Shown here piece after piece: positions 1 to 8,125 of a stretch of DNA of 10,006 nt. The position numbers and the translations under genes were made by a program. The DNA is from Acidobacteriota bacterium (GTDB lineage: Bacteria; Acidobacteriota; Thermoanaerobaculia; Multivoradales; UBA5704). Position 1 is the first letter of the stretch. Every line of letters starts with the position of its first letter. The DNA is taken from contig JBDTZG010000113.1 of NCBI GenBank assembly GCA_040005235.1, forward strand, positions 1-10,006. Direction: 5' to 3'. The notes beneath the pieces are model-generated. The model saw only the letters and a list, made by a program, of their open reading frames with translations. It searched no databases and had not been told where the DNA came from.

Positions 1-57
1 GGGATCTGTCGTCGTGGCCCGGACGGGGGGATTTCGCTCTCTGCCTGAAAGCCTTCC

Positions 58-70
58 ATGAGAAGGCCAA
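58..70. repeat. Right subterminal inverted repeat of the IS (atgagaaggccaa)
   Basis: Exact reverse complement of 1484-1496. Confidence 0.92.
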
Positions 71-74
71 CTTG

Positions 75-80
75 TGTCAA
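75..80 (-). promoter_or_regulatory. Outward-facing -35 box (TTGACA) just inside the IS right end, part of a predicted circle-junction promoter
   Basis: Perfect TTGACA on the minus strand, 17 nt before the outer edge of the IR. This is the position expected for IS1111-type junction promoters. Confidence 0.65.
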
Positions 81-96
81 GCCGCCGCGGCGGCTT
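79..96. terminator. Perfect 18-bp GC-rich palindrome (aagccgccgcggcggctt); possible terminator or 3' boundary of the IS RNA
   Basis: Self-complementary sequence between the guide-containing region and the right IR. It has only short T tails, so terminator function is uncertain. Confidence 0.4.
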
Positions 97-99
97 TCC

Positions 100-290
100 C
101 TACAATCTGTTCTCGGCTGAGAGCGGCTCCCCAAGCTTCCATTCGCACTGTCAGTGGACCGGTTCTGGGTCCCGTGCACGATGGGGTCCACCCCGCTGGG
201 CCCGACAATCTCGCTCTCGACCTTGAAGGCCAGGGGATCTGTCGTCGTGGCCCGGACGGGGGGATTTCGCTCTCTGCCTGAAAGCCTTTC
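100..290 (-). ncRNA. Putative bridge/seek RNA of the IS1111-type element (boundaries approximate)
   Basis: Non-coding region between the transposase stop and the right IR. It contains a match to the left target flank (208-219 = 1500-1511), a match to the right IS end (136-142 = 53-59), the complement of the left IS end (180-185) and the complement of the predicted right target half (233-240). These lie in internal loops of stems folded by hand. Confidence 0.8.
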
Positions 291-310
291 TTCGATCCTT
301 CGGAGCGGGC

Positions 311-1408
311 TTATGCTGCCTGCGCCAGGGGCCTCGCGTGCGCCGTTTTCCTTACCTGCTCCGTTCGTTTCGCTTGGTAGAACGGGTCGTACTCGGCCTG
401 GCCGGACCACAGGCGGTGCAACAGAACCGCAAGCCTGCGGGCCACCGCGATCACCGCCCGTTTCTTCGCCGCCCGCCCGCCGCGTTGCACCAGCGCCAGA
501 CCGTAGCGCCGCAGGTCGCAGTCCTTCCCGAACGGACCCAGGATGTACTGCGCCGATTGCACCAACAGACAGCGCAGCATCTCGTCGCCGCGGTGCGTGA
601 TGCCTTTTTCCTTCGAGGTCGCTCCCGACCGATCGCTGCTCGGCGCCAGCCCCACGTAGCCTCCCACCAGCCGGGAGCGCGCAAAGCGCTGCGGATTCTC
701 GATCGTCGCCACGAAGGCCAGGGAGGTGACAGGACCCACTCCGTTGACCTGCCGCAGCAGCGTCGCCGCAGGCTCCCTGCGGCCCACCTGCTCGACCTGC
801 CGATCGTACCGAGTCACCTCGGTGGCCAAAGTCTCGATGAGCTCCAAGAGCGGCTGCAGGATCGCCTTGAAGTCCTCGGGAACCTCGTCCTGGCAGCGAC
901 GCGCCCAACCGGCGCTCGTGCCCCGGGTCACGGGCTGTCCTCGTTTCTTCATCGTGCTGCGCACGTGATTGACGATCTTGGTGCGTATCTGGACCAGCAA
1001 CCCGCGCGTTTGCAACAGCGCCCGCTGCAGCTCGGCCCCTTCGCCGCGCAGCGTCACCGGCGACAGCAGCTTGGGATCCGCCAAAGCCAGGCGCGCCAAC
1101 AGCTGAGCGTCGACCCGGTCGCTCTTCTTGTGACCGTGCGAGATCAGACGCACCTGCCGGGGATTGGCAACGATCACTTCGTGACCCCAGGCGGAGAGCT
1201 GGCGAGCGATCCAGCTCGACTGCGGCCCGGCCTCCAGCGCGATGCGCACGGGACCCGTCCCGGAGAAGCGATGCTCCAACCCGGCGCGACCCGTCAGGAT
1301 CTTGCCGCTTTCGACCTCCTCGCCCTTGGCATCGAGACCACAGAGATGAATCCATCGATCCCCCAGATCCAGGCCCACCACCACCGGAGTTTTGGTAATC
1401 TTCGCCAT
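311..1408 (-). CDS. IS110-family transposase / RNA-guided bridge recombinase (365 aa)
   Basis: N-terminal RuvC-like DEDD motifs (VGLDLG, ALEAG, KKSDRVDA), VNGVGPVTS helix-hairpin-helix, and C-terminal catalytic Ser motif GLAPSSDRSG followed by GDEMLRCLL and AVIAVARRL. ATG at 1408 is preceded by a GGGAG RBS and is preferred over TTG at 1414. Confidence 0.96.
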   Translation of the reverse strand: MAKITKTPVVVGLDLGDRWIHLCGLDAKGEEVESGKILTGRAGLEHRFSGTGPVRIALEAGPQSSWIARQLSAWGHEVIVANPRQVRLISHGHKKSDRVDAQLLARLALADPKLLSPVTLRGEGAELQRALLQTRGLLVQIRTKIVNHVRSTMKKRGQPVTRGTSAGWARRCQDEVPEDFKAILQPLLELIETLATEVTRYDRQVEQVGRREPAATLLRQVNGVGPVTSLAFVATIENPQRFARSRLVGGYVGLAPSSDRSGATSKEKGITHRGDEMLRCLLVQSAQYILGPFGKDCDLRRYGLALVQRGGRAAKKRAVIAVARRLAVLLHRLWSGQAEYDPFYQAKRTEQVRKTAHARPLAQAA

Positions 1409-1483
1409 GGTCAATCTCCCTTTGGGCCCCGAGCCCGGAAACCAACGGTTGCAGCCCGTAATTTACGGGACTGCGTAGGGAGA

Positions 1484-1496
1484 TTGGCCTTCTCAT
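1484..1496. repeat. Left subterminal inverted repeat of the IS (ttggccttctcat)
   Basis: Exact reverse complement of 58-70, located about 75 nt upstream of the transposase start. Confidence 0.92.
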
Positions 1497-1501
1497 CCCA
1501 T

Positions 1502-1522
1502 CTCGCTCTCGCTCGGGATGAC
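1502..1522 (-). repeat. Left half of a REP-like palindrome (GTCATCCCGAGCGAGAGCGAG) interrupted by the IS
   Basis: Resembles the GTCATCC(C/T)GAGC..GCGA(A/G)GGATCT class of extragenic palindromes, as recalled rather than searched. The ATCCC arm lacks its GGGAT partner because the IS begins exactly there. It is intergenic, downstream of the helicase. Confidence 0.6.
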
Positions 1523-1587
1523 GAGGGGGGAGGACGGCTCGGTTTGTGTGTGTGTGGGGCTTGCCGACGCTGGAGGGGGGAAACGAC

Positions 1588-2793
1588 TTACCGCAACATC
1601 CGCCGTCGGATCGTCGTTTTCGGCTTGAGCTCCACCCACGGTTCCACCCCGGGCAGGGTGCAGCGGGGGATCTCAAAGCCCAGTACGCCTTCTACCTCTT
1701 TGATCGTCGGCTTGTCTTGCCAGGTGACGATCGAAGAGACCAGGCCAAGCATCGCTCCGCGGCCGGTTCGGCCGGCTCGGTGGATGTAGTCGTCGACTTT
1801 CTCGGGCAGGTCGAAGTGGATGACGTGCTCGATTTCCGGGATGTCGATGCCGCGGCCTGCCACTCCGGTGGCGACAAGGATGCGGGTCTTGCCTTCGCGG
1901 AAGCTCTTCAGCTCGAGGACGCGCTGGCCTTGGGTCAGGTCGGCGTGGATTCTTCCGACGCTGAAGCCTTCGCGTTCCAGGACCGAGGTCAGCCATTCGG
2001 CGTCGCTCTTTCGGCGGATGAAGATCAGCGTCCGACCGAGGTTCACGTGGAGCAGCGCGTGGAGGCAGGCTTTCTTGTCCTCGTCCGCCACCATGTAGAG
2101 CCGGTGGGTGAGGCCCGTGGCCGCGCCGCCTTCGGGCAGGATGTCCACCCGCAGCGGATCGGAGAGGAACATCTTGGTCAGGCGCTCGATCGGCGGCGGC
2201 ATGGTGGCCGAGAAGAGCATCGTGTGACGCTCCTTCGGCAGCAGGGAGAGGATCTCCTGCACCTGCGGCAGAAAGCCGAGATCGAGCATGTGGTCGGCTT
2301 CGTCGAGCACCAGCTCTTCGATCGCGTCGAGCTTGAGCGTTCGGCGCTCGATGTGGTCGAGCAGGCGGCCCGGGGTCGCGACCACCACGTCGGGACCGCG
2401 TTTCAGCGCTTCGAACTGCGGTCCCATGCGGACGCCGCCGATCAGGCAGGCGGTGTCGAGGTGCCGGTCCTGGCCGAACAGGTCCATGAACGCCTTGGTC
2501 TGGAGCGCCAGCTCCCGCGTGGGCGAGAGGATCAGACCGCGCAAGCCCTTGCCGTGCGAGAGCCTTTCCGCGAGCGGTAGGCTGAACGCGGCGGTCTTGC
2601 CCGAGCCGGTGGCGGCGAGGCCGATCAGGTCGCGTCCGGCGAGCGCGAGCGGGATCACTTCGGACTGAATCGGGGTCGGATACTGGAATCCGATCTGCTC
2701 GATGATCTTGAGGATCGGAGGGGAGAGCCCCAGGGACGAAAATGGCTTGTCGGTGGTGGCTACGGGATGTTGGGGTATGGCGAAACTCTGCAT
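1588..2793 (-). CDS. DEAD-box ATP-dependent RNA helicase (RhlE-like, minimal core)
   Basis: Q motif (GFQYPTPIQ), AATGSGKT, PTRELA, TPGRL, DEAD, SAT, RGIDI and HRAGRTGR. The start is uncertain (ATG at 2793 chosen; the ORF is open to 2814). Confidence 0.95.
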   Translation of the reverse strand: MQSFAIPQHPVATTDKPFSSLGLSPPILKIIEQIGFQYPTPIQSEVIPLALAGRDLIGLAATGSGKTAAFSLPLAERLSHGKGLRGLILSPTRELALQTKAFMDLFGQDRHLDTACLIGGVRMGPQFEALKRGPDVVVATPGRLLDHIERRTLKLDAIEELVLDEADHMLDLGFLPQVQEILSLLPKERHTMLFSATMPPPIERLTKMFLSDPLRVDILPEGGAATGLTHRLYMVADEDKKACLHALLHVNLGRTLIFIRRKSDAEWLTSVLEREGFSVGRIHADLTQGQRVLELKSFREGKTRILVATGVAGRGIDIPEIEHVIHFDLPEKVDDYIHRAGRTGRGAMLGLVSSIVTWQDKPTIKEVEGVLGFEIPRCTLPGVEPWVELKPKTTIRRRMLR

Positions 2794-2911
2794 TCGAGGC
2801 CATTTATAGAACAAATCGGTCGATCCGACAAGGAACCGGCAGACGCTCCGACAGCCAGCCCCCGGTCCTGTTTTGGGTTCGGTACCGGAGCGTCTCTACC
2901 GTCCCCAGGGC

Positions 2912-2917
2912 TATACT
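2912..2917 (+). promoter_or_regulatory. Candidate -10 element (TATACT) for the GNAT-aminotransferase operon
   Basis: TATACT in a GC-rich divergent intergenic region, 11 nt before ATG 2929. No clear -35 or SD sequence. Confidence 0.4.
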
Positions 2918-2928
2918 CAATGCCTGCC

Positions 2929-3492
2929 ATGAGCCTGATCGCCGCTCCGCCCGGTGTGATCTGGAAGCGCCTGACCGAGCCTTGGGAGCTCGATCAGGTG
3001 TATCGGCTCAACCACCGAACCTTCGCCGAAGAGATCCCGCAACATGCCGAACGGCCCGACCGCCGCCTGGTCGATGCCCGCTTGGCCGACAGCATCGCGT
3101 TCGTCGCTTTGGCGGAAGAGCGGGTGGTGGGGATGGTGGCGGTCTGCTCGAAGCGGCCGTTTTCGCTCGATAGTAAGGTGCCGGATCTCGACTCGTACCT
3201 GCCACACCACGTCCGGGCTTGCGAAGTCCGGCTGCTCTGCGTCGAGCCAGAACGGCGGCAAGGCGCGGTGTTCGGCGGGCTGCTGGGCTGCGTGATCGAG
3301 TACGGCCGGTCCGAGGGGGTCGATCTGGCGGTGATCTCCGGCACCGAGCGGCAGGCGAAGCTGTACCGTCATCTCGGGTTCCAGGCGTTCGGGCCGCCGA
3401 TCGGCACGCCCGAGGCTCCCTATCGGGCCATGTACGTCACTTGGGATGACCTGACGCCTTCGGCCAAGAAGCTCGGAGAAGGGGCGCCGTGA
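2929..3492 (+). CDS. GNAT-fold N-acyltransferase (N-acyl amino acid synthase / FeeM-like)
   Basis: ELDQVYRLNHRTFAEEIPQH N-terminal motif, CEVRLLCVEPERRQG acyl-donor-binding motif A, and LYRHLGF motif B. Start is ATG 2929 or 2920; the ORF-track start at 2767 overlaps the divergent helicase. Confidence 0.85.
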   Translation: MSLIAAPPGVIWKRLTEPWELDQVYRLNHRTFAEEIPQHAERPDRRLVDARLADSIAFVALAEERVVGMVAVCSKRPFSLDSKVPDLDSYLPHHVRACEVRLLCVEPERRQGAVFGGLLGCVIEYGRSEGVDLAVISGTERQAKLYRHLGFQAFGPPIGTPEAPYRAMYVTWDDLTPSAKKLGEGAP

Positions 3493-4586
3493 GCGACGTC
3501 TTGGACGACCGCGTCTCGTTTCTTCCAGGTCCCGTGCCGATGCACCCGGAGGTTTCGCGGGCGTTCGCCGGTCCGGCGATCTCCCATCGTTCCGCCGCGT
3601 TCCACGCGCAGATGGCCGAGGTGAAGAGGCGCCTTTGCGATCTCGTCGGCCTGCCGAACGTGCAGCTGCTGGTGGGTTCCGGCACGCTTGCCAACGATGC
3701 CGTCGGCGCCCAGTTGTCGCTCCTGACCGGGCGCGGCCTGGTGCTTTCGAACGGCGAATTCGGCGAGCGGCTGATCGAGCAGGCCGGCCGGTTCGGTCTC
3801 GCCTTCACCCCCTTGCGCTCCGAGTGGGGCGAGCCGTTGCCGCTCGACGAGGCGTCGCGGACCGTGGAGCCGATCGAATGGATCTGGGCGGTCCATTGCG
3901 AAACTTCGACCGGCGTATTGAACGACCTTTCCCGATTGGCGGATCTCGCTCGCGAGCGGGGGGCGAAACTCTGCGTCGATGCGATCAGCTCGGTGGGAAA
4001 CACCTCCGTCGACCTCTCCAATGCCTGGCTCGCGACCGCCACGTCGGGAAAGGGCCTCGCCGCGTATCCGGGTTTAGGTTTGGTGTTCCATCGAGAGGAG
4101 ATCGCGCCGTCTTCACGGCTGCCGCGCTATCTCGATCTGGGGCTCTGGGCGCGCGAGGACGGGGTGCCGTTTACCGCGTCGTCCAATCTGCTTGCGGCGC
4201 TTGGGTCTGCGCTGGAGATCGGCGGCAGGGAGGACGGACGGCGCGCGCGGCTGGCCGCCGATCTTCGACCGCGGATCGAGCGGATGGGATTTTCTTGCCT
4301 GGCGCCGGTGGAAACCGCGGCGCCCTGGGTTCTCACGCTGATCCCCCCCGACGGGACGAGCGCCTTCGCTCTCGGCGAGCGACTGGAGGCGGAGGGGTTC
4401 CTGCTCTCCTACCGCAGTGGCTACCTGGTGCGGCGCAACTGGCTCCAGATCTGCTGGATGGGGGAGCACGCCCCCGCGGCGCTCGACGCCCTGCTCGACG
4501 CTTTACGCGAGGCTTTGCGCGACGCTTTACGCGATAAACCGACGGCCGCCTTCGAACCGTCGGCCGTGCTTCAGGCGCCCGAATAG
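3489..4586 (+). CDS. PLP-dependent aminotransferase class V (serine-pyruvate / 2-AEP transaminase-like fold)
   Basis: FLPGP, GSGT, NGEFGER, VHCETSTG, VDAISS, and the Schiff-base Lys in SGKGL. GTG start overlaps the GNAT stop (GTGA at 3489-3492). Confidence 0.92.
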   Translation: MSDVLDDRVSFLPGPVPMHPEVSRAFAGPAISHRSAAFHAQMAEVKRRLCDLVGLPNVQLLVGSGTLANDAVGAQLSLLTGRGLVLSNGEFGERLIEQAGRFGLAFTPLRSEWGEPLPLDEASRTVEPIEWIWAVHCETSTGVLNDLSRLADLARERGAKLCVDAISSVGNTSVDLSNAWLATATSGKGLAAYPGLGLVFHREEIAPSSRLPRYLDLGLWAREDGVPFTASSNLLAALGSALEIGGREDGRRARLAADLRPRIERMGFSCLAPVETAAPWVLTLIPPDGTSAFALGERLEAEGFLLSYRSGYLVRRNWLQICWMGEHAPAALDALLDALREALRDALRDKPTAAFEPSAVLQAPE

Positions 4587-4672: not shown

Positions 4673-7255
4673 TTGGTCCGACGCCTTTTTCCGTCCCTCG
4701 CTCCCGCCGCCGTTCTTCTCTCCGTGCTGTGGGGCGGCGCCTGCGCCACCGCGGCGCCTTCGACCCGGCCAGCTCCTCCCGCGACCCCCGCGGCAGTTCC
4801 TCCTGCCTCGCCCGTCGCCGCCAAGATCGCCGGCCTTGATCCTCGCGCGGGCCTGCTCGACCTCTATCTCGACAAGAAGACGGGCAAGGTCTGGCTCGTG
4901 CTGCCCGCTCCCAGCGGTCCGGGAGGCCGGGTCGGCAGCTATCTCTATGTCGAATCGCTCGGCTCGGGGCTCGGCTCGAATCCGGTCGGCCTCGATCGCG
5001 GCCAGGTCTCGGACGCCCAGATTTTGGACATCCGGCGCGTCGGCGGGCGGATCCTGTTCGAGCTGCCGAACTATCAGTTCCGCGCCGGGGCTCGCGTCCC
5101 TTCCGACAACGCGGCGGAACGGCGGGCGGTCGCCGAGTCATTCGCCACTTCGGTGCTCTGGGCCGCGCCGATCGAAGCGGAAGATCCCGACGGCCGGGTG
5201 TTGATCGACCTCACCGGCTTCCTGGTGCGCGACTCGCACGGCGCGGCAGCCTCGATGGCGGCGGCACGGCAAGGCTCCTGGTCGCTCGATGCGGGGCGCA
5301 GCGCGGTCGATCTCGACGGCTGCAAGGCGTTTCCCAAGAACGTCGAGCTGACCGCGCTGCTGACCTTCCAATCGAGTGCGGCGGGCCAGCTCGTGCGCGA
5401 GGTGGCCCCCGGCTCGCCGGGGGATCGCGCCGTCACTCTCACCGCCCACCAGTCTCTGGTCGCCCTTCCGGATGCGGGGTTTCGGCCGCGCAAATTCGAT
5501 CCCCGGATGGGCCATTTCGCGGTCGGCTTCTTCGACTTCGCCGTGCCGCTTGGGAGCCCGCTTGAAGGCAACTTCGCCGCCCGCCACCGGCTGCAGAAGA
5601 TCGACCCGGCCGCGGCGCGCTCGAAGGTGAAAGAGCCGCTCGTCTACTACGTCGACAACGGCGCGCCGGAACCCGTGCGGAGTGCTCTGGTCGAAGGAGC
5701 GAGCTGGTGGAAGGAGGCGTTTGAGGCGGCGGGATTCATCGACGGGTTCCGGGTCGAAGTGCTGCCCGAGGGCATCGATCCGCTCGACGCGCGCTACAAC
5801 GTGGTCCAGTGGGTCCACCGCTCGACCCGCGGCTGGTCGTATGGCGGCGGCGCGATCGACCCGCGCACGGGAGAGATGATCAACGGCCACGTCCTGCTCG
5901 GCTCGCAGCGGGTGCGTCAGGACCGGCTGCTGTTCGAGGGTCTGATCGGCGCCTCGGGCACCGGAAGCGGCGGGGCCGCCGATCCGATCCAGCTGTCGCT
6001 CGCCCGCATCCGCCAGCTCGCGGCGCACGAGGTCGGCCACTCCTTGGGGTTGTCGCACAACTTCGCCGCCTCGACCTACGGCCGGGCTTCGGTGATGGAC
6101 TACCCGGCGCCGCTGGTGAAGGTGACCTCCGGAGGCGATATCGATCTTTCCGAAGCCTACGCGAAGGGGATTGGCGCCTGGGACATTCAGGCGATCAAGT
6201 ACCTCTACTCGGAGTTTACGTCCGAGCAGGAGGACGCGGGGCTTGGGCAAATCGTCGCCGAGACGCTCTCGCGCGGCATGCTCTATCTGTCGGACCAGGA
6301 CGCGCGACCCTTAAGCTCGTCCCACCCGCTCGCGAACCTCTGGGACAACGGCGCCGATCCGATCGCCGGCCTGGAAAATGCGGTGAAGGTGCGGCGGATC
6401 GCTCTCGCGCATTTCGGCCTCGGCAACCTCGGCGCCGACCGGCCGCTCGCCCTGCTCAACGACGTCCTCGCCCCCGTCTACTTCCACCCCCGCTATCAGC
6501 TCGAAGCGGCGGCGAAAAGCGTCGGCGGCGCCACCTACGAATACGTGATGCCGGGCGACGGCCAGGCTCCCGTTCGGCCGGTGCCGGCCGTCGATCAACG
6601 GCGGGCGCTCGCCGCGGTGCTCTCGGCGATCTCGCCCGCCGAGCTCGATCTGCCGGATTCGATCCTCGCCCTGCTGCCGCCGCGCCCGCCGGAAGTGAGG
6701 GCGTCGGTCGAGACCTTCCGCGGCGACTCCTCTCCGATCTTCGATCCGCTCGGCGCCGCGGCCACCGCGGCGGATTTCGCCCTCGGCGACCTGCTCGCGC
6801 CCGAACGGGCCGCGCGCCTGGTCGATCAGCACCGCCGCGATCCGTCGTTGCCGGGTCTCGAAGAGGTGATGGACAAGATCATCGCCGCGAGTTTTTCCGG
6901 GGGTGGCTCGCCGCGCCTCGCCGAGATCCGGCGCACGGTCGAATCGGTGGCCGTGGCGCGCCTGATCGGCCTCGCGGGAAATCCCGCGGCCACCTCCGGG
7001 GTGAGGGCGCGGGTCGAGGCCGCCCTTTCCACCCTGGCGCGCCGGCCGATCTCGGGAGGCGAGCCGGCCGAGGAGCGCGCGTATTTCGGGCATCTGGTGC
7101 GTGAGATCGAACGGTTCTTCCACCGCGCCGAGGCGCTCGACCGGCCGGTCGAATCGGCGCCGGAGATTCCGCCCGGTCAGCCGATCGGCGGCGGCCAGCC
7201 CGGACTTGGAATGCCGGACGATCTCGACGGCTGCTCGCTCGAAGGGAAGCGCTGA
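4673..7255 (+). CDS. Exported zinc-dependent metalloprotease (metzincin; DUF5117/DUF4953-type), probable lipoprotein
   Basis: HEVGHSLGLSH zinc motif, SVMDY Met-turn, DPRMGHF and IDPRTGE family motifs. Signal peptide ending LWGGAC followed by a Pro/Ala linker. TTG start with a GGAGG RBS at 4660-4664. Confidence 0.92.
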   Translation: MVRRLFPSLAPAAVLLSVLWGGACATAAPSTRPAPPATPAAVPPASPVAAKIAGLDPRAGLLDLYLDKKTGKVWLVLPAPSGPGGRVGSYLYVESLGSGLGSNPVGLDRGQVSDAQILDIRRVGGRILFELPNYQFRAGARVPSDNAAERRAVAESFATSVLWAAPIEAEDPDGRVLIDLTGFLVRDSHGAAASMAAARQGSWSLDAGRSAVDLDGCKAFPKNVELTALLTFQSSAAGQLVREVAPGSPGDRAVTLTAHQSLVALPDAGFRPRKFDPRMGHFAVGFFDFAVPLGSPLEGNFAARHRLQKIDPAAARSKVKEPLVYYVDNGAPEPVRSALVEGASWWKEAFEAAGFIDGFRVEVLPEGIDPLDARYNVVQWVHRSTRGWSYGGGAIDPRTGEMINGHVLLGSQRVRQDRLLFEGLIGASGTGSGGAADPIQLSLARIRQLAAHEVGHSLGLSHNFAASTYGRASVMDYPAPLVKVTSGGDIDLSEAYAKGIGAWDIQAIKYLYSEFTSEQEDAGLGQIVAETLSRGMLYLSDQDARPLSSSHPLANLWDNGADPIAGLENAVKVRRIALAHFGLGNLGADRPLALLNDVLAPVYFHPRYQLEAAAKSVGGATYEYVMPGDGQAPVRPVPAVDQRRALAAVLSAISPAELDLPDSILALLPPRPPEVRASVETFRGDSSPIFDPLGAAATAADFALGDLLAPERAARLVDQHRRDPSLPGLEEVMDKIIAASFSGGGSPRLAEIRRTVESVAVARLIGLAGNPAATSGVRARVEAALSTLARRPISGGEPAEERAYFGHLVREIERFFHRAEALDRPVESAPEIPPGQPIGGGQPGLGMPDDLDGCSLEGKR

Positions 7256-7261
7256 TCCCCC

Positions 7262-8125
7262 ATGGCAAGCCCGTTGGCCCTCTCGCTCGTCCGGGCTCTG
7301 CCGCTGCTGATGCTCTCGGGAACCTGCGCGCCGAGCGCTCCCGGTAAGACAGCGCCCGCGAGCGCTGAGCCCCAGCCCGTAGCGGCGGCCCCTCCGGCCC
7401 CTGCTGCGGTACCCGCTCCCCGGCCGATCGAGCACCTCGGGGTCCACGTGCTCGCAACGCACCCGCACGATGCGGCCTCCTACACCCAGGGGCTGCTCTG
7501 GTACCAGGGGAAGCTCTACGAAAGCGCCGGCCAGTACGGCCGTTCGGACCTGCGCGAGGTCGACCCTACGACCGGCAAGGTGCGCCGCAAAGTGGCGCTG
7601 CCGGGCAACATCTTCGGCGAGGGGCTCGCCCTCGCCGGAACGCGGCTGCTCCAGCTCTCCTGGCGCGAGGGCGTCGCGTTCTCGTGGGATCTGGCGACTT
7701 TCGCCAAAGGGCCGGAGTTTCACTACGCGGGCGAAGGGTGGGGCCTCTGCTACGACGGTAAACGCCTGGTCCGGAGCGACGGCACGGACGTGCTGACCTT
7801 CCACGACCCCACGACGTTTTCCGAGACCGGCCGGCTCTCCGTGCGCCGGGCCGGCCAGCCGGTGTTCTATTTGAACGAGCTGGAATGCGTCGGATCGGAG
7901 GTCTACGCCAACGTCTACCAAACCGACGAGATCGTGCGCATCGATGCCGCGACCGGCGAGGTGACCGCCTCGATCGATGCCTCGGGTCTGATCACCCCCC
8001 AGGAGAGCCTGGCGGGCGCCGAGGTCTTGAACGGCATCGCCTGGAACCCCGAGGAGAAGTTCTTCTACGTCACCGGCAAGCTCTGGCCCAAGATCTTCGA
8101 GGCGCGGTTCGAGAAGCCGCATTGA
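7262..8125 (+). CDS. Glutaminyl-peptide cyclotransferase (plant/bacterial beta-propeller type), exported
   Basis: HPHD...YTQGL, FGEGL, GEGWGL, LNELE, VLNGIA and VTGKLWP motifs. N-terminal hydrophobic signal with Cys plus a Pro/Ala linker. Starts 6 nt after the protease stop. Confidence 0.93.
   Translation: MASPLALSLVRALPLLMLSGTCAPSAPGKTAPASAEPQPVAAAPPAPAAVPAPRPIEHLGVHVLATHPHDAASYTQGLLWYQGKLYESAGQYGRSDLREVDPTTGKVRRKVALPGNIFGEGLALAGTRLLQLSWREGVAFSWDLATFAKGPEFHYAGEGWGLCYDGKRLVRSDGTDVLTFHDPTTFSETGRLSVRRAGQPVFYLNELECVGSEVYANVYQTDEIVRIDAATGEVTASIDASGLITPQESLAGAEVLNGIAWNPEEKFFYVTGKLWPKIFEARFEKPH

Follow-up and report, generated by a model that had tools for sequence, protein, structure and literature searches.

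An IS1111-type insertion sequence of an uncultured Acidobacteriota bacterium and its probable bridge RNA with four guides and an AG core

Introduction

The bridge RNAs, or seekRNAs, of IS1111 elements were described in publications of 2024 (PMC11187229, PMC11208160), so that the element analysed here belongs to a known kind. In these accounts, covariance models predict a bridge RNA at the right end of 93.0% of the IS1111 elements in ISfinder (PMC11208160), the transposases carry the pattern GL-P----S(T)G (PMC11187229), and the group is characterised by subterminal inverted repeats, 7-17 bp long, and by short extensions beyond them.

The present element lies in a stretch of 10,006 bp (hereafter the window), which is an entire contig (C38) of a draft genome of 140 contigs. 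An initial annotation, made from the letters alone, had read four guide segments next to its right end and labelled it a candidate programmable recombinase. The label is reasonable, programmability being a published property of the family that is, for this element, predicted from sequence. The window appears to hold a diverged and apparently intact member of the already known IS1111-type bridge-RNA recombinases, and we consider it very probable that this is an IS1111-type element with a bridge RNA holding four guides and an AG core.

Results

The element, its ends and its setting

The minus strand of the window holds one full-length insertion sequence of IS1111 type (IS110 family). Its parts and its neighbours, the latter assigned by Pfam, are as follows.

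53..1503, minus strand: whole insertion, with the AG core at either end (1503-1502 on the left, 54-53 on the right)
1501->53, minus strand: element proper, 1449 bp
1497..1501, minus strand: left terminal extension ATGGG, the right-donor sequence, from the sequence read and homologous ends
1484..1496, minus strand: left subterminal inverted repeat ATGAGAAGGCCAA, complementary 13/13 to 58-70
311..1408, minus strand: transposase/recombinase gene, 365 aa (ATG at 1408, stop at 313-311)
75..94, minus strand: GC hairpin GCCGCCGCGGCGGC (94-81), then TTGACA (80-75), of which TTGAC is kept in 11 loci
58..70, minus strand: right subterminal inverted repeat TTGGCCTTCTCAT, a perfect 13-bp pair with 1496-1484
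55..57, minus strand: right terminal extension GGA, from homologous ends
2814-1588, minus strand: DEAD-box helicase gene, left neighbour
2767-3492: FeeM/GNAT-like acyltransferase gene
3489-4586: class-V aminotransferase gene
4673-7255: gene for a Met-zincin DUF4953/DUF5117 protein
7262-8125: glutamine cyclotransferase gene
9954-8575, minus strand: PhoD-like phosphatase gene

The ends were set by comparison with 12 homologous loci and with uninterrupted copies of the target. The 12 loci, found via the transposase, have common ends, AG-ATGGG-atgagaagg ... ccttctcat-GGA-AG, so that the crossover can be placed at the AG present at both junctions (1503-1502 and 54-53). This AG is found at both junctions in the window and in the 11 loci that have both ends, as a single common dinucleotide with no longer target duplication. 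Non-coding DNA amounts to 93 nt upstream of the transposase gene (1501-1409) as against 258 nt downstream (310-53), the longer region lying downstream as in the IS1111 group. The element sits at an AG that belongs to a dispersed, REP-like repeat, some 85 nt downstream of the DEAD-box helicase gene. The assembly holds a single copy of the element and, besides it, only a right-end fragment on contig C119; a search of the genome for further copies gave matches in C7, C35 and C56 that lack the remaining motif set.

The transposase matches PF01548 (at 3.6e-17) and PF02371 (at 5.4e-18), and scores 215 bits, for a cut-off of 140, with NF033542 (NCBIfam 'IS110 family RNA-guided transposase'). It has the motif residues D14, E59, D97 and D100, and GLAPSSDRSG at residues 253-262 with S261, as in a DEDD/Ser transposase; the 365-aa frame is open and the set of catalytic motifs is complete. 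Its matches in the PDB, to the ISCro4 and IS621 transposases, are weak, and among named elements there was no close sequence relative, the best annotated plasmid matches being about 32-34% identical.

A GC-rich hairpin and then a conserved TTGAC(A), 4-7 nt ahead of the right inverted repeat, are present also in L004-L020, with TTGAC retained before the right repeat in 11 loci inspected by eye. In a circle, TTGAC(A) would stand about 18 nt from GAAGAT across the junction, and TTGACA (80-75) may be the -35 element of a circle-junction promoter, of the sort reported for IS110/IS1111 family members (PMC12288879). A scan of linear positions 1-420 with a simple sigma-70 model found neither promoters nor terminators.

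Guide strings

The four guide strings first read on the minus strand are where they had been placed, and none has a second occurrence in the 240 nt that separate the transposase stop codon from the right inverted repeat. They are given here with the strands to which they belong.

240-233, minus strand: AGATCCCC, right target string as initially read
232..242, minus strand: 5' strand of the target-binding loop, ACAGATCCCCT, with family covariation at RT+1..+7
241-234, minus strand: right target guide CAGATCCC, complementary to G+GGATCTG
219-208, minus strand: CGAGAGCGAGAT, identical to 1511-1500
208..218, minus strand: 3' strand of the target-binding loop, GAGAGCGAGAT, GAGCG + core AG + AT
179..187, minus strand: right donor guide strand ACCCCATCG, containing CCCATC
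185-180, minus strand: CCCATC, complementary to G+ATGGG, the left IS tip
133..143, minus strand: left donor guide strand AATGGAAGCTT, containing ATGGAAG
142-136, minus strand: ATGGAAG, identical to the right IS tip AT-GGA-AG

When the 240-nt stretch was put through 20000 mononucleotide shuffles, the 12-mer CGAGAGCGAGAT was found in none (0/20000), the 9-mer GAGCGAGAT in 31/20000, CAGATCCC in 89/20000, CAGATCC in 323/20000, CCCATC in 1130/20000 and ATGGAAG in 264/20000; all four matches (9, 7, 6 and 7 nt) were jointly present in 0/20000.

Both target guides nonetheless differ in extent or register from the first reading. The right target guide is complementary to the target, but the best register is CAGATCC(C) at 241-234 against the core G plus GGATCTG; opposite the core A it carries a C, the family base there being T, or, read alternatively, it has one surplus C relative to the observed target. 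In the left guide the exact 12-nt match stands, but the programmed part is LT-5..-1 with AG and AT (216-208): by column covariation the three additional matching bases of the window are no family feature, and the AT that follows the core equals bases 1 and 2 of the left IS tip.

The target site

To the left of the core, the target consists of a repeat found elsewhere in the genome.

1504..1526, minus strand: left target half, dispersed REP-like repeat TCGTCATCCCGAGCGAGAGCG ahead of the core AG; 8 genomic matches

The repeat occurs at eight places in the genome within 3 mismatches, and four uninterrupted copies read on across the crossover from ..GCGAG into GG(A/G)TC(T/C)G. The form ..GAGAGCGAG followed by GGATCTGG is present twice in C87, with variant forms in C83 and C67; uninterrupted copies in the same genome also read TCGTCATCCCGAGCGAGAGCGAG followed by GGATCTGGGGG. 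The right target that had been predicted from the RNA, GGATCT, is real, being present in the empty repeat copies, in L022, in a contig of run X2 and in C119. L022, a 5'-truncated relative in another genome that is 90% identical over 495 nt, passes from ..CTCATGGAAG into GGATCTGGGGG, and in run X2, an independent assembly, a 26-kb contig spans window positions 52-1700 and continues into GATCTGGGTGGGCGGGCGGCCTTGAATCCC, which is identical to bases 50-79 of C119. The 14-mer GAGCGAGGGATCTG has exactly two further occurrences in the genome, both in the dispersed repeat, for a composition expectation of 0.08; two perfect target sites are unoccupied.

The repeat family that serves as IS target, (T/C)CGTCATCCCGAGCGAGAGCGAGGGATCTGGGGG..GGCCTTGAATCC with an ATCCC/GGGAT palindrome, has sites at C87:44967-45800, C67:7856, C83, C121:15519 and C35:134131, and two of its copies lie about 760 bp apart in C87. 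In a metagenome contig, L071, positions 1-140 hold an empty target copy (left flank, AG and right flank) some 120 bp upstream of the copy that is occupied, which suggests that the L071 target sits in a tandem repeat.

Covariation of target guides with flanks

At least 120 loci were retrieved from metagenomes with a search pattern made from the conserved donor-loop motif. Adding the loci collected before gave, among the matches listed, 139 motif matches, the right end being placed in 112 and the left in 69; removal of identical RNAs and of matches close to a contig end left, among the matches listed, 126 RNAs, of which 97 had 12 nt or more of right flank and 62 had 19 nt or more of left flank. 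The window entered this set with the flank seen in X2/C119, not with its contig's own.

Covariation of homologous right ends with their flanks had been proposed as a check on the guides, and both target guides do follow their own flanks among the matches listed. Within that set the left target guide matches its own flank exactly over at least 9 nt in 36/62 cases, as against 42/3782 with foreign flanks, and the right target guide over at least 8 nt in 46/97, as against 306/9312. The covariation of the right guide is moderate, own matches falling below 7 nt in 32/97 (among the matches listed). The distance from the end of the left target guide to the end of the left donor guide is 69-78 nt (10th-90th percentile) and in the window 72 nt.

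Column by column, the test was made on a MAFFT alignment, A2, with the 57 rows in which the core is AG and the tip 5 nt long. Identity to the own left flank from LT-1 to LT-5 is 0.96, 0.95, 0.89, 0.86 and 0.70 (n=57), the foreign values being 0.25-0.35; left of LT-5 the same rows (A2, n=57) gave no covariation signal. The base after the core tracks base 1 of the IS tip (0.91 vs 0.67), RNAs whose tip begins with G, T or C having AGGT, AGTT or AGCT. For the right guide, complementarity at RT+1..+7 is 0.47-0.61 (n=93-96) vs 0.25-0.34 with foreign flanks, and RT+8 and RT+9 gave no complementarity signal. Of the two target-loop strands, then, one repeats the left target with its core and the other is complementary to the right target, and both covary with the flanks. 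The pairing of target GAGAGCG-AG-GGATC with donor CATGGA-AG-ATGGG, as originally proposed, is backed by independent sequences as well as by guide/flank covariation in homologues. L084, the nearest relative with different guides, shows only a partial fit to its own flanks.

Two side observations belong here. At A2 column 289 (window 217), six before the core, identity to the own left flank is 0.16, lower than the foreign value of 0.24, as if a mismatch were favoured at the edge of the left guide. The metagenome contig L038 carries a divergent member of the subfamily, with a divergent scaffold, inserted in an equivalent type of repeat (..GTCATCCCGAGCGTCGAGCGAG followed by GGATCTGGGCGGGG); its guides are AGATCCCT and CAGCGAGAT, the right guide AGATCCCT being a perfect match that includes the core, and by its sequence it is apparently a case of convergent or inherited specificity on another scaffold.

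Fold of the RNA

Single-sequence minimum-free-energy folds show the expected shape with z of -1.57 and -0.33, so that fold energy by itself is uninformative. RNAalifold on the MAFFT alignment gave 12 pairs only (P1, P4 and a CC/GG pair between the donor strands); a structure of 33 pairs was therefore written by hand from the consensus and then tested on A2, a sequence-only alignment that had not been fitted to it. Its elements in the window are the following.

129..263, minus strand: bridge RNA core, from the P0 5' strand to the P0 3' strand, from the column-to-coordinate map of the tested structure
263-260 / 132-129, minus strand: P0, enclosing the whole RNA; covaries
259-255 / 192-188, minus strand: P0'
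253-249 / 202-198, minus strand: P1, GGGCC
247-243 / 207-203, minus strand: P2, CGACG, with A248 bulged
242-232 / 218-208, minus strand: target loop
231-228 / 222-219, minus strand: P3, hairpin inside the target loop (GGCC / TTCAA / GGTC), spanning 219..231
178-174 / 148-144, minus strand: P4, TGCAC/GTGCG; invariant, and used in the pattern that retrieved the metagenome loci
172-168 / 160-156, minus strand: P5, hairpin distal to P4; covaries

Folding of the region, the other check proposed at the outset, thus yields a conserved fold with the guides in loops: 84.2% of 4098 cells are paired, as against 31-45% when the structure is slid along the alignment, the covariation score is 0.270 as against at most 0.089 in the slid controls, and 0/500 shuffles attain the observed value. 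Helix 6, the basis for the P1/P2 strands 243..253, is paired in 89% of cells with two-sided changes in 7/10 pairs. In P2 the window, L022 and L084 have CGACG/TGTCG instead of CTGCG/TGCAG, and in P0 CCCC/GGGG instead of CGCC/GGCG, the changes in both stems being compensatory.

The stems initially drawn around the target loop are present, in the minimum-free-energy fold also. As for the donor stems, the inner TGCAC/GTGCG appears in that fold, but the outer AGCGG/CCGCT is not a conserved closure: its strands pair in 16/104 own and 819/10712 foreign combinations, although the sequence of the window allows the pairing. The conserved closures are instead 263-260/132-129 (CCCC/GGGG) and 259-255/192-188. 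An Rfam search of the entire window at E<=1 gave no family match; the one sub-threshold match, to snoZ6 and within the transposase gene, was taken as chance. What we observe, in sum, is the anatomy of an element, complementarity of guides to flanks and tips, covariation of these across homologues and a conserved fold.

A proposed mechanism and a possible inactive copy

We propose that the non-coding region downstream of the transposase gene would encode a bridge RNA (seekRNA) of about 135 nt. Its long arm, P0'-P1-P2, would open into the target-binding loop, and a second pair of strands would flank the invariant P4, closed by the long-range P0, with the 5' strand CCCATC pairing with the left IS tip. 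If the element behaves as IS621 and ISEc11 do, it would leave its site as a circle whose junction reads CATGGA-AG-ATGGG, and the recombinase-RNA complex would exchange strands at the AG core between this circle junction and GAGCG-AG-GGATCTG. Transcription and processing of the RNA, its binding by the protein, circle formation and activity of the window copy are what we infer.

It may also be that the anatomy has been read correctly and that the window copy is an inactive relic, fixed at one site, whose RNA no longer directs transposition; we hold this to be unlikely, though a serious contender. A relic would account for the presence of one copy although two perfect target sites are free, albeit repeated copies are often lost from draft metagenome bins; the right target guide with C, not T, opposite the core A, the identical insertion site in the second sample (X2) and the 5' truncation of the related copies L022 and L018 would fit it too. 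Set against these, the open 365-aa frame with every catalytic motif, the intact state of both ends and all stems, and the match of the guides to target and tips across 6-9 nt speak against a relic.

Donor guides

The right donor strand precedes the invariant TGCAC stem, and its guide covaries at 3/5 tip positions. It tracks departures of the tip from ATGGG at base 3 (8/8), base 4 (10/13) and base 1 (9/11), and does not track base 5 (4/15) or base 2 (2/4); at base 1 it is mostly non-complementary (0.30). For the left donor guide, the search pattern itself prescribed ATGGAAG, and no weight can be given to the conservation of this string among the metagenome loci. Among loci found by protein, L017 has the right tip CATAGAAG with the guide ATAGAAG, a left donor guide covariation in one locus; L019 also has ATAGAAG, its right end not being located; and L140 is a counter-example, with the tip CATAGAAG and yet the guide ATGGAAG. 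On these sequences the donor loop appears supported, less firmly than the target loop.

These data bear on a second alternative, that the target arm is the sole functional guide, a short seekRNA, the protein reading the ends via the subterminal repeats and the donor matches being by-products. SeekRNAs of 82-96 nt with target matches only have been described (PMC11187229), and the near-invariance of ATGGAAG and of the IS tips makes the donor covariation thin, as do the mostly non-complementary base 1 and the lack of covariation at base 5. We nevertheless think this quite improbable: the right donor guide does track tip bases 3, 4 and 1, L017 has changed in both tip and left donor guide, the P0 stem around both parts covaries, and Durrant et al. 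report IS1111 donor loops (PMC11208160). That the four matches arose by chance or are leftovers of target sequence inside the element, with guide RNA absent, is scarcely credible, for while the matches are short (6-8 nt), Rfam is without a match and fold energy is unremarkable, the four matches are jointly absent from all 20000 shuffles, the guides covary with differing flanks at fixed positions in about 100 loci (among the matches listed), and the fold covaries.

The right flank and possible tandem modules

At its right end the contig departs from the predicted flank.

1..55: first 55 nt of the contig, an exact copy of 234-288 in place of the expected GGATCT flank

The right IS end of the contig (..CTCATGGAAG, 62-53) is followed by GCTTTCAGG.., not GGATCT, the tip being joined at AG to internal sequence (285 onward) by the 55-nt repeat. 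In run X1, possibly the source sample, a 263-nt contig spans 26-288 with its first and last 30 nt identical; this 233-bp loop has a depth of 9.8, the main contig one of 10.4 (single-copy depth), and no exit from the loop was seen in the X1 contigs. In run X2 the element passes directly into the GGATCT flank, and C119 (L003) 1-80 opens with a right end that is a variant of the window's (84% identity across 44 nt) and then has the true flank. Runs X3 and X4, which gave short, diverged pieces of transposase gene only, were left out. Likeliest, the 55-nt repeat is an assembly loop, or else a second, diverged RNA module between element and flank in the source strain. A guide-directed origin of the repeat is not supported for the window, the internal junction GAAGAA-AG-GCTTTCA fitting the target at 1/5 positions on the left and 2/7 on the right.

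The right flank recurs inside the element in 3/104 loci. L071, considered as a duplicated module, resembles a duplicated target region instead. L018, on an 8.07 Mb record titled 'chromosome: 1', has at 2531-2900 a tandem repeat of 183 bp that comprises the right end together with the donor half of the bridge RNA; at its junction GGA-AG is fused to the base directly after the left target guide and AG of its own RNA gene. This copy is 5'-truncated at L018:1500, with unrelated DNA upstream, so that a nested full-length insertion is not supported. Since the DNA that encodes the guide is by definition a copy of the left target half, the recombinase may sometimes take it as a pseudo-target. We raise, as a speculation with rather poor prospects, that two elements of the subfamily have right ends with a tandem extra bridge-RNA region joined at AG, and that the window may be one of them; if true, guide modules would be duplicated in tandem, with spare copies free to diverge toward new targets.

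Discussion

The existing picture of how bridge-RNA systems work is unchanged by this locus. It illustrates that the guide code of an IS1111-type element is legible in raw sequence and open to checking: the site that the RNA alone predicts as target was found empty in this genome and occupied in other genomes. The locus further points to a subfamily, large and mostly environmental, with at least 120 metagenome loci, in which the donor junction CATGGA-AG-ATGGG and the scaffold are conserved and the target guides highly variable, a set useful for learning which positions of the scaffold tolerate reprogramming.

Among described systems, the window shares with ISEc11, ISPa11, ISKpn4 and ISPst6 (Siddiquee et al. 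2024, PMC11187229) the DEDD and PF02371 domains and the GL-P----SG motif. As that account describes for IS1111 seekRNA elements, it has subterminal inverted repeats, a long non-coding region downstream of tnp and site-specific insertion, and its RNA has the top-strand match 5' of the bottom-strand match, with overlap at the crossover. Its transposase, at 365 aa, is longer than the 330-350 aa given there for the family, and its target, unlike those of the named IS1111 seekRNA elements, is a repeat of an uncultured soil/root bacterium. The transposase of the ISAzs32 family on a plasmid of Azospirillum sp. B510, likewise of the IS110 family, is 32.9% identical over 80% of the protein; ISAzs32 is among the six elements with a bridge RNA inspected by Durrant et al. 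(PMC11208160), with whose guide definitions those used for the window agree.

ISPpu9 of Pseudomonas putida (PMC12288879) resembles the window in recombining AG with AG, in a target inside a REP element, and in a small-RNA gene downstream of tnp with module-wise arrangements. It belongs, however, to the IS110 group without subterminal repeats, which the window has, and its modules are bounded by A/B boxes, whereas the repeated block of the window is not preceded by such a box.

With IS621, as described by Durrant et al. 2024 (PMC11208160) and Hiraizumi et al. 2024 (PMC11208158), the window has in common a 2-nt core present in both target and donor and the catalytic D, E, D, D and Ser. The core itself is AG in the window and CT in IS621; the RNA lies 3' of the gene in the window and 5' in IS621, and the order of guides within the loop is reversed. 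The donor strands of IS621 are in a separate stem-loop, whereas those of the window would lie in a junction closed by the long-range P0; and the bases that would reach the partner DNA adjoin the left target guide in the window, where AT equals the IS tip, while the handshake guides of IS621 adjoin RTG and RDG.
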